From: a virus
Lineage: Duplodnaviria > Heunggongvirae > Uroviricota > Caudoviricetes
Direction: 5' to 3' (one strand)
DNA: 21,150 bases
IMG/VR virus record: IMGVR_UViG_2648501392_000022
Coordinates: 1-21,150 of that record
Part shown: piece after piece, positions 18,001 through 21,150 of the stretch
Numbering within the stretch: position 1 is the stretch's first letter
Layout of the letters: each line of letters begins with the position of its first letter
Position numbers: made by a program

Positions 18001-21000
18001 TAAAATTGCACCATCGTGCTGGGTAACATTTGTTGCCGTACCACCACTAACATCAAGCACGCCACTGGAATAAACTTCAATAACATCCGAGGAGCTGGTG
18101 TAATCAACAATTTGCGTACCACCAGAATAGATCTGAGTATTTTTTGCCGTTGACTTATTATTCAGAGACTGAGTTCCACCTTCAATCGTCGTGTCCAGCG
18201 CATGGCTTTCATATACTCTTTGCTCACCGCCATTTTTAATGGTGGTTGTTCCTACTGTGCTCTGTTCAACATACTGTCGTCCACCATTTATGATTGTGTT
18301 CGTTGCCATACTTCCTTGCGTGATGTCCTGATAACCGGACTTATTTATCGTTGTACCATCAACATGCCCCTGAGTTGTTACTGTCTGCCCTCCACCATCA
18401 ATGATGGTTCCATTCGCAGTCCCCCCACTTATGTGTGAATTACCACCCTTAATTGTCGTTCCATTGCTGATACCACCTGTATAAACGTCCTGATTGCCAC
18501 TGTCGATTATCGTACCGGTGGAAATGCCCCCGTCATGAATTGTCTGTCTTCCTCCGTTAATGGTTGTATTATTAGACTGCCCCATATAATTGTTATTCCT
18601 TCCAACATCTTGATATCCACCAGATTCAATAAGACTTCCATTAGATACTCCGCCATAAACACTCTGCTGGCCATGGTTGATAATATGAGTGTTATTTGTT
18701 GTACCTCGTTCATCTACTCGTTGGTTGCCATCTACAGTCTCATCGTTTACCACACCAATAACATTAGTAGTAAAGGCCGCCATCCCGGGCGGGGCATATA
18801 TCAAGGCAGATATCAATAAGGAAAGTACTGAGCGGCGAAAATAATAGGGACTGGTCCTGTTCATAAATTTCATCCTCTGAAAAGTGAATACTGAGTAGCG
18901 TTTAAGCGACCTTAGCTCTGCTGCAACATCAGCCCGCAGGCACCAGACCGGGGGATTCATCCTGAAGAGACAGCGCAAGTGTATTGTGTTCACCGCTCAT
19001 CAAAGACATCATGATGAAATGATGATATTCCACATAAGAAAGAGGCATTTTTTAAACACAGTGCGCTGAAGTGTGATTGGATAAAAAAGTCAATCTATTC
19101 AGGAAATACGGGCGTATTCTTTTCTTTCGACAATCAGGCCGTCGGCAAAATAAAATGATTTACATAATCGTTTCTGATGAATATCTTCTGCTCACATAAA
19201 AATCACACAATAACTTTGAGATCGCAGATTCTTTTACTTTTACAGCATTCGTCCCCCCATTGTTGGGCAAATATAGATTGGGCCAGAGCACGAAAGTTAA
19301 TACCACGTTTGCACAGCTCCTCCAACAGCACGACAAGATGCCACATACTGCGCCCCAGTCGGTTCGGTTTACAGACTACCCGTGCGTCCACCGCCGATAA
19401 TGTCCTGAGCAGTTTTTTCAGTCCGGACCTCCTGCCACGGTTTTATGTTGAAGAGGTAACCCTGAGCACGCAGTTCATCAGTCAGGCGTGGTGTACCGTA
19501 ACCCTATTATTGATGGGTAAGATCAAAAAAACTTTCAGGCAGCTAAGGAAAGTTGAACCAGACATTAGAATAAATATTTCAACCAATTACAGCACCAATT
19601 CAGACACCGCCAGCTCAACAAATAAATCAAGGGGTTACGTGAAAGCGTAGCCCCTTTTTCTTTGGTAGTGGCAGCAAAATGGTTGTAGTGTAAAAAATAA
19701 TCCCGTTTAATCAATCAATAATACATATTGTTTCAATCTACGTTATTATCTCTTTGTAAAAATAGCCATTTATTAATCATTGAAAACTGCTTTTAGAACT
19801 TGATACAACGGGACTAGTCACAACAGGACTATTCTCAACGGGATCGTCCTCAGAGGAACTATCATCAAAGTCATCATCCATAAATAAAATATCATCGAAT
19901 GGTGCCACGCCCGTGATGAGTTTTATTTTATTATTACGATCAGTCAAGACTCCACTTAAACCGTTTTCGCTCACAGGTTTTAATGATTTTTCATTACTCT
20001 TGTTGTAAGCAGGCGCATTAAAAATACACGGAGTATCAAGATCAAACAATGACGTTCCCCAGTTCACATATTGAATATCATAGTTACTGAAGTTCTGTCC
20101 AGAAAAGAAGCATCCCTTAAAATCCAATCCACCTAAATTATATAAACCATCCTCTTCTTTTTGGAGAGTAATGTTAATTTTGGCTATCTCCCGGACATCA
20201 TCGCCATTTTTATATTTGAATACCGTTTCAAGATTTTCCCCACACAGTTTGACTTCTGGAAATAATTTGAAATCAAAGCCTATATTATTATGTATCAACG
20301 TAGATGAACAAAAGATGGAGAAAGCTTGCAGTGCTGAATTATAGCTTTCGATTTTATCCTGAGGCTGCGCTCTTGGTAAAAACTCATAGCAACATTCATA
20401 AAAATTAAGTAGAAACTCTGAAGACCTTCCATTTTTATCAAATAATATCCCCTTGAACTCATTCACAAACGCATCTTTTTTTTCTTGAATATCTATGGGG
20501 TGTTCCTTTGACTCTGACAAAGATGAAATCTCATCTATTTTGTTTTCATATGAATTACGTGATTCCATACAGACATTTGGCGGCGTTTCTAAAATAACAC
20601 TACGCGTACTACTTGGCTTAAGTAAACCAACATGAAAATCACTTTTTCTTATATTATCGAAAAGGTTCTGTTCATTTCTTTTAGCGCATTAAAAAAACTG
20701 ATCGGCATTATTTTTATTCGATAATTTTTTAGTTTCAGAAAACACATTTTCATTGTTTTCCAGCTTTAGTTTAATGAGAAGATTTTCCCAGACCTGCTTG
20801 CTTAAACATATTACGTCAGGCTCACCAGAACTAACTAACTCGTGATTATTATTAAAGTGTACGTTGAATACCTTTAAGTTATTTTCACCAACTTCATATT
20901 TAATACGTTTTAATTGTTCTCCAGCTCCCATAATGACAAAGGCGTTGCCTTCTTGATATATACATTCAGACATCATTTTTTGTAAAGTTTCAAGAGCACC

Positions 21001-21150
21001 GCGATACGTCTCTGATGCAGCTTCCTTACAAATTAATTTTAAAATACTATGAGCTAGTAGCTCCATGTGTTTAGAAGATTTATTTTCATTATAACTTCCA
21101 CTACCCAAAACTGCGCTAGCGTTAAATCCGTTGCTTTTACTAACGAACAT

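Follow-up and report, generated by a model that had tools for sequence, protein, structure and literature searches.

The closest described counterpart of the locus examined here is the long-annotated 'ypjC' plus 'ypjB' pseudogene locus of Escherichia coli K-12, in which one in-frame stop in the linker between the domains (Q161*, CAG to TAG) inactivates a two-domain frame of 457 codons. Intact versions of the same gene, ypjCB, are encoded by the O157:H7 strain EDL933 (WP_000906744.1, 449 amino acids (aa)) and by strain cq9 (WP_000961357.1, 457 aa). We analyzed a stretch of 21,150 nucleotides (nt), called the window in the following, which comprises positions 1 to 21,150 of the IMG/VR virus record IMGVR_UViG_2648501392_000022 (Caudoviricetes). 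At its end, at 19777-21150 on the minus strand, lies a locus that is very probably an inactivated allele of ypjCB, a gene restricted to E. coli and Shigella, broken by one G-to-T nonsense change. The locus itself is thus already known. What the window adds is an allele with a stop of its own.

K-12 and the window have the chromosomal position and the two-domain frame in common, with 97.2% DNA identity across 1551 nt. In both, a single stop in the linker inactivates the gene, but the stop is E154* (GAA to TAA) in the window and Q161* in K-12. The 3' halves also differ, with 26 substitutions between 19846 and 20448 that mark a distinct haplotype, and the K-12 allele is common (1435 genomes), whereas the window allele is rare (about 36 complete genomes). 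EDL933 is more distant (91.9% DNA identity to the window, about 84% at the protein level). It has GAA at codon 154, encodes the whole protein, and ends 8 codons earlier than the window frame. The cq9 gene is intact and nearly identical, with only three coding positions that differ from the window, the stop included, and with GAA at codon 154.

Translation of the minus strand from 21150 to 19777 yields 457 codons in one frame, starting with an ATG that forms the final three bases of the window (up to 21150) and ending with the native stop TGA at 19777-19779. The sole internal stop is codon 154, a TAA at 20689-20691 (...NNADQFF*CAKRNEQNLF...). An earlier note, made from the sequence alone, had described two open reading frames (ORFs) at this place as one frame separated only by this TAA, and the translation agrees with that description. 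Codons 1-153 (20692-21150) are the N-terminal DUF5507 part, equivalent to K-12 'ypjC', and are the only part expected to be translated. Codons 155-457 (19780-20688), 3' of the stop, comprise the linker and DUF5508 and are equivalent to K-12 'ypjB'.

Profile searches place both parts in the same family. Pfam PF17612 (DUF5507) matches residues 1-153 with profile positions 1-153 of 160 (E=3.5e-105, 349 bits), and PF17621 (DUF5508) matches over its full profile, 1-263, in the frame shared with the N-terminal part (E=3.3e-178, 591 bits). The NCBIfam model NF050179, which describes YpjCB as a protein of 465 positions, is matched at 1-153 before the stop and at 155-465 after it. The two fragments score 298.8 and 620.6 bits against a curated cut-off of 650, and the intact EDL933 protein scores 952 bits. 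As the fragments cover contiguous positions of a model that the intact protein matches so well, the locus qualifies as a disrupted member of the family. RefSeq annotates near-identical genomes in the same sense ('YpjCB family protein / DUF5507 domain-containing protein; internal stop'). In E. coli E110019, to which the window is 100.0% identical over its whole length except for an IS3-family element and two small indels in the complete genome, RefSeq labels ypjCB a pseudogene ('frameshifted; internal stop'). Megablast of 19600-21150 finds a match in 3172 of 5426 complete E. coli genomes, always on the chromosome and annotated 'ypjCB: YpjCB family protein' or 'DUF5507 domain-containing protein'. 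The gene order ypjA / recombinase (pinH) remnant / ypjCB / tRNA-Ile ileY is the same in six annotated genomes, E110019 included.

The alternative to a broken gene would be that ypjC and ypjB are two genuine adjacent genes and that the TAA is the normal end of the first. The separate Pfam families for the two halves and the presence of ORFs of 153 and 263 aa at the locus speak for this idea, as does the phenotype of a K-12 'ypjC' deletion, to which we return below. However, the position of the stop varies by lineage (154 here, 161 in K-12), the NCBIfam model treats the whole as one protein, and the 41 codons from the stop to the next ATG come without a ribosome-binding site. Among 22 sampled alleles, codon 154 is a sense codon in 17 (GAA in 15, CAA in 2), and the ORF is uninterrupted in at least 11. 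Uninterrupted ORFs at the ypjCB position have 449 aa (EDL933, O145), 457 aa (cq9) or 484 aa (MRSN346647 and six others), and a protein search returned hundreds of full-length clusters, with two intact proteins, P0043 and P0064, occurring on 547 and 510 contigs, respectively. Given the 17 sense codons and the existence of full-length ORFs, homologues do not normally end at the TAA. The intact alleles already refute the existence of two separate genes, which we regard as highly improbable. The interpretation of the earlier note, a single gene broken by a recent nonsense mutation, is borne out by the full-length ORFs, by the NF050179 model that spans both halves, and by the near-identical intact allele of cq9.

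E154* is a young, lineage-specific event that arose separately from the nonsense mutation of K-12. Codon 154 is GAA in K-12 and TAA in the window, codon 161 is TAG in K-12 and CAG in the window, and over 20449-21144 the two sequences differ only at these two nonsense positions. As they are otherwise identical over this range, E154* and Q161* must have arisen on the same N-terminal haplotype. The wild-type codon, which the earlier note had suggested should be sought in related strains, is present in cq9, whose coding sequence differs from that of the window, besides the stop, by only one synonymous and one non-synonymous change. Counted as exact-word matches, so that carriers with nearby single-nucleotide polymorphisms (SNPs) are missed, the 90-mer with the TAA occurs in 35 of the 5426 complete E. 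coli genomes, and in one further genome with an additional SNP; the wild-type 90-mer occurs in 79, and 28-mers containing the K-12 TAG in 1435. A sequencing error is excluded by the identical stop-containing 90-mer in 35 other complete genomes. The carriers come from human isolates of Shiga toxin-producing E. coli (STEC) and enteropathogenic E. coli (EPEC), and from mouse, dog, bat, pork and seawater. This diversity of sources indicates that E154* is real and older than this strain, yet confined to a small group.

How would the stop act? The lesion is a G-to-T transversion on the coding strand (base 20691 of the plus strand is A, versus C in intact alleles) that converted codon 154 from GAA (Glu) to TAA, in the linker between DUF5507 and DUF5508. 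The context of the stop is CAG TTT TTT TAA T, and in E. coli no termination signal is more efficient than UAA followed by U. Translation would be expected to halt at this codon, the product would be a 153-residue N-terminal DUF5507 fragment, and the C-terminal 303 codons, with a pentapeptide-like tract and an acidic tail, would not be made. The earliest in-frame start past E154* is the ATG of Met195 (20566-20568; ORF 19777-20568), 41 codons past the stop, and the preceding 22 nt (AGAAACGCCGCCAAAUGUCUGU-AUG) lack a Shine-Dalgarno-like sequence. With the next start so far away and no ribosome-binding site in front of it, the C-terminal part is presumably not produced, and re-initiation at Met195 would probably be inefficient.

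Programmed read-through or recoding at the TAA, which would give two products from one gene, might be suggested by the T-rich run that precedes the stop and by the fact that both parts are in the same frame. However, since the downstream part is in frame 0, a frameshift at a slippery site would be useless, and frameshifting is therefore irrelevant here. Moreover, UAA-U is the strongest terminator context in E. coli, and the stop is absent from most alleles and hence not conserved. We consider read-through next to impossible.

Several points nevertheless weigh against the simple picture of an inactivated gene, in addition to the carriers that exact-word matching misses. Both the synthesis of the 153-aa fragment and the absence of the C-terminal part in this strain are deduced from the sequence. 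The promoter and the 5' untranslated region of ypjCB fall outside the window. A promoter scan found sites no more frequently than in shuffled sequence, the real promoter being located beyond the window end. Finally, the term "pseudogene" may overstate the loss, because the fragment retains the whole of DUF5507 and could be made and be active. When the equivalent 160-aa 'ypjC' ORF was deleted in K-12, a pathogen colonised mixed biofilms more strongly and biofilm cell counts rose (PMC3646849), and so the 153-aa fragment, too, may not be inert.

Lesions in ypjCB are not limited to the two linker stops. The 22 sampled alleles contain at least six independent lesions, which are E154* (the window allele), Q161* (K-12), a 1-bp deletion in an A4 run at nt 609 (E15, TK3888, STEC17-190, and also FORC_042, where it accompanies E154*), a premature stop at residue 119 (WW2), the loss of 4 bp from an (AACT)3 repeat at nt 311 (present in the complete genome of E110019, but not in the window), and complex indels (23CRST032). 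The occurrence of the nt-609 deletion both with and without E154* implies that alleles have recombined or that slippage has recurred. The gene is intact in 7 of 9 sampled 484-aa alleles and in all 3 of the O157/O145-type alleles. From this distribution we infer that several E. coli lineages can do without ypjCB or select against it, while others, such as O157:H7, O145 and the 484-aa carriers, keep it intact.

Between intact alleles, the ratio of non-synonymous to synonymous substitution rates (dN/dS) is 0.7-0.85 for the whole gene, 0.7-1.5 for the N-terminal domain, 1.3-2.3 for the linker, and mostly 0.2-0.6 for the C-terminal regions. A C-terminal module from about L336 to D430 has long invariant runs, with invariant columns at L336-N378, and the acidic core of the tail, FDDILFMDDDFDD, is invariant in one alignment (A1) and invariant or nearly so in another (A2). 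The low C-terminal dN/dS and the invariant runs indicate that the constraint, whatever there is of it, sits on the part that the stop removes.

The recurrence of linker stops raises the question of whether the split itself is kept by selection, with truncation in the linker freeing a stand-alone DUF5507 protein and dropping the C-terminal module, so that the gene would be remodelled rather than dead. Two independent nonsense mutations seven codons apart on an otherwise identical N-terminal haplotype are consistent with this, as are the location of all six lesions within the initial ~55% of the gene (before DUF5508 or at its very start), the occurrence of the truncated K-12 allele in 1435 genomes, and the phenotype of the K-12 ypjC deletion. 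However, the stop at aa 119 and the 4-bp deletion at nt 311 lie inside DUF5507 and would destroy that domain, and the N-terminal dN/dS gives no sign of purifying selection. The sample is small, and a concentration of lesions in the first half is weak support, since every early lesion takes the C-terminal part with it. Clonal descent and over-represented laboratory strains may simply account for how frequent the K-12 allele is. A selected split appears unlikely to us.

The part of the protein beyond the stop has two features that the earlier note had pointed out. One is an acidic, Ser/Pro-rich C-terminal tail (aa 417-457; 19780-19902), which is clearly present; the final 40 residues of the frame, FDDILFMDDDFDDSSSEDDPVENSPVVTSPVVSSSKSSFQ, contain 11 Asp/Glu, 10 Ser and 3 Pro. 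The other is a set of tandem pentapeptide repeats, and here the claim holds in part only. Residues 337-371 (20038-20142) form seven unbroken pentads (YNLGG LDFKG CFFSG QNFSN YDIQY VNWGT SLFDL) with the centres L/F/F/F/I/W/F, and five of them have D or N just before the centre (position i-1). The pentad motif score is 24, a value that no shuffled version of the protein attained in 5000 trials (mean of the shuffles 13.9, standard deviation 1.7), and alleles differ little or not at all over the tract. A short, non-random seven-pentad tract thus exists, but no Pfam match above threshold accompanies it. The tract is shorter than the 8-repeat Pfam unit, its i-2 positions are atypical and often bulky (Y, L, Q), and the whole protein does not match the Pfam pentapeptide models even at E<=10. 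The tract alone gives 12.7 bits on PF00805 (E=0.095), where the cut-off is 20.2 bits. A search of PDB sequences aligned it in register with Qnr (3pss), at a non-significant E=0.26 and among chance matches to antibodies. As a control, we used EspX1 of EDL933 (L013:3331-4752), an accepted pentapeptide effector, which scores 18.2 bits on Pentapeptide_4, where the cut-off is 38. Since EspX1 itself stays below the Pfam cut-off, failure to reach it is only weak evidence against a degenerate pentapeptide region.

Structure prediction was of low confidence. The full-length AlphaFold2 (AF2) model has beta-bridges every five residues in aa 337-369, at a predicted local distance difference test score (pLDDT) of 54-72; the mean pLDDT of the model is 36.9. 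The C-terminal domain alone is predicted with pLDDT 55.2 and a predicted template modelling score of 0.59, and is unconfident over the tract. A beta-helix is not confidently predicted in either the full-length or the domain-only model. The models are poor because the alignment is too shallow, with every homologue at least 76% identical. We conclude that the tract is a genuine motif, which amounts to less than two coils of a beta-helix, and that the pentapeptide family label applies at the motif level only.

Is the intact protein an effector? The earlier note had seen a likeness to secreted-effector families, and one could imagine intact YpjCB as a secreted or translocated effector, for example of a type III secretion system (T3SS), with a pentapeptide beta-helix, in which case the window would carry a recently lost effector gene. 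Some observations fit. The gene is AT-rich and lies beside a tRNA gene and an att-type scar of ssrA. The N-terminal and linker regions evolve fast. The seven-pentad tract occupies about the same relative position as the pentapeptides of EspX1, and the AF2 model places the five-residue beta-bridges there. Ser and Asn abound among the first 21 residues and acidic residues are absent from them, which is suggestive only, given what is generally known about type III signals. However, the searches of Pfam and NCBIfam returned no effector family above threshold, only the YpjCB and DUF models, and a BLASTP comparison with the T3SS effector EspX1 of EDL933 is not significant (E>=2.9). The best pentapeptide protein in the PDB is the Qnr alignment described above. 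The gene is inactivated in E110019, a LEE (locus of enterocyte effacement)-positive atypical EPEC, and it is intact in clinical as well as environmental strains. No literature linking ypjC or ypjB to secretion was found. The likeness to effectors is therefore not borne out, and a lost effector gene is improbable. Low GC content, position in an island, a Ser/Asn-rich N-terminus and fast evolution are circumstantial, being compatible with an effector and proving nothing.

Wider searches leave YpjCB without relatives outside E. coli and Shigella. Phmmer against 1.84 billion representative proteins returned only the family itself, fragments, and one repeat artefact; the latter, P0164, was the lone distant match (E=4e-4) and was rejected as a BNR/Asp-box repeat protein. 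A scan of 185,579 species-representative genomes found the gene only in E. coli, in Shigella flexneri, and on one contig of a metagenome-assembled genome labelled Planococcaceae, which at 98% identity is probably contamination. Sequence and fold searches of the PDB gave nothing significant (the profile search had one chance match, E=1.3), the PADLOC defence proteins did not match YpjCB, Rfam had no match within ypjCB, and the only PHROGs entry, phrog_30093 (function unknown), is the family itself. A literature search on DUF5507, DUF5508 and YpjCB found nothing, and mentions of ypjC or ypjB are confined to gene lists, except in PMC3646849. YpjCB does not belong to any characterised effector, toxin or defence family. 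Our best guess, held with low confidence, is that the intact protein is a fast-evolving accessory protein with the conserved C-terminal module as its functional part. More speculatively, and with small odds of being right, YpjCB could be an E. coli-specific protein for host or community interaction, possibly secreted, with a conserved C-terminal module made up of a minimal pentapeptide-type beta-coil and, after it, the invariant acidic-hydrophobic motif FDDILFMDDDFDD. The convergent linker truncation in commensal and laboratory lineages would then be an adaptive split that leaves a DUF5507 protein with a role in biofilms.

The surroundings of the locus suggest a foreign origin. GC content drops at the end of the window, as the earlier note had stated. 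The last three 500-nt bins (19501-21000) have values of 0.354, 0.346 and 0.322, compared to 0.41-0.57 in most of the window. Directly downstream of ypjCB, 19607-19682 on the plus strand duplicates the final ~13 nt of ssrA (the gene for tmRNA) together with its intrinsic terminator (hairpin at 19629-19656), with 96% identity to the genuine 3' end of ssrA in strain EC5502. It is an attR-type scar of islands that target ssrA. Location between the integration hot spots ssrA and ileY fits with the foreign base composition. The best explanation is that ypjCB is a single-gene locus of low GC content that was acquired by horizontal transfer and lies between ileY on one side and the ypjA autotransporter with the pinH remnant on the other.

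The neighbouring gene for the adhesin-like autotransporter ypjA/ehaD (~16080-18990, minus strand) is also a pseudogene in this strain, with an internal stop and without its C-terminus; a 508-aa ORF at 17467-18993 is its N-terminal passenger part. The window and the complete E110019 genome (NZ_CP035751.1) differ in three places. The tetranucleotide repeat in the N-terminal domain of ypjCB (20829-20840, no strand assigned), (AACT)3 in the window, has only two copies in NZ_CP035751.1, which adds a 4-bp frameshift there. At window position 2040, NZ_CP035751.1 has C7 instead of C6. An IS3-family element of ~1.3 kb, at about window position 12260, is absent from the window. The three differences may stem from assembly or from true changes between stocks. 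Positions 1-15000 of the window are mostly a lambdoid-type prophage, with annotated genes for a SASA-family esterase, antiterminator Q, toprim/DEAD helicase replication proteins, a LexA-family repressor, a ParE-like toxin, an SPFH protein and an integrase, several prophage genes (TerB-family, Q) having frameshifts or internal stops. Two prophage-borne small RNAs score above the Rfam gathering score, AgvB (anti-GcvB) at 676-737 on the plus strand (96.5 bits) and STnc100 at 738-928 on the minus strand (144.7 bits).

The E154* lesion has already been flagged by RefSeq in E110019, and in this respect the finding is ordinary. Its modest value is that E154* is independent of the textbook Q161* of K-12 on a nearly identical N-terminal haplotype. 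Repeated inactivation in some lineages, with the gene intact in others, makes ypjCB a convenient marker of lineage-specific gene decay. Intact YpjCB is a true orphan, so that any role ascribed to it would be a new one; our results do not suggest such a role.

Among characterised proteins, the nearest comparison is with pentapeptide proteins of the EspX1/Qnr/MfpA type. EspX1 (473 aa) and YpjCB (457 aa) are of similar length, and the genes for both are AT-rich accessory genes of E. coli. Both proteins have a short, degenerate run of pentads with central L or F in the C-terminal half, which in each case stays below the Pfam gathering thresholds. YpjCB differs from the pentapeptide proteins, however, in that its run comprises only seven pentads, which is less than two coils of the quadrilateral beta-helix.

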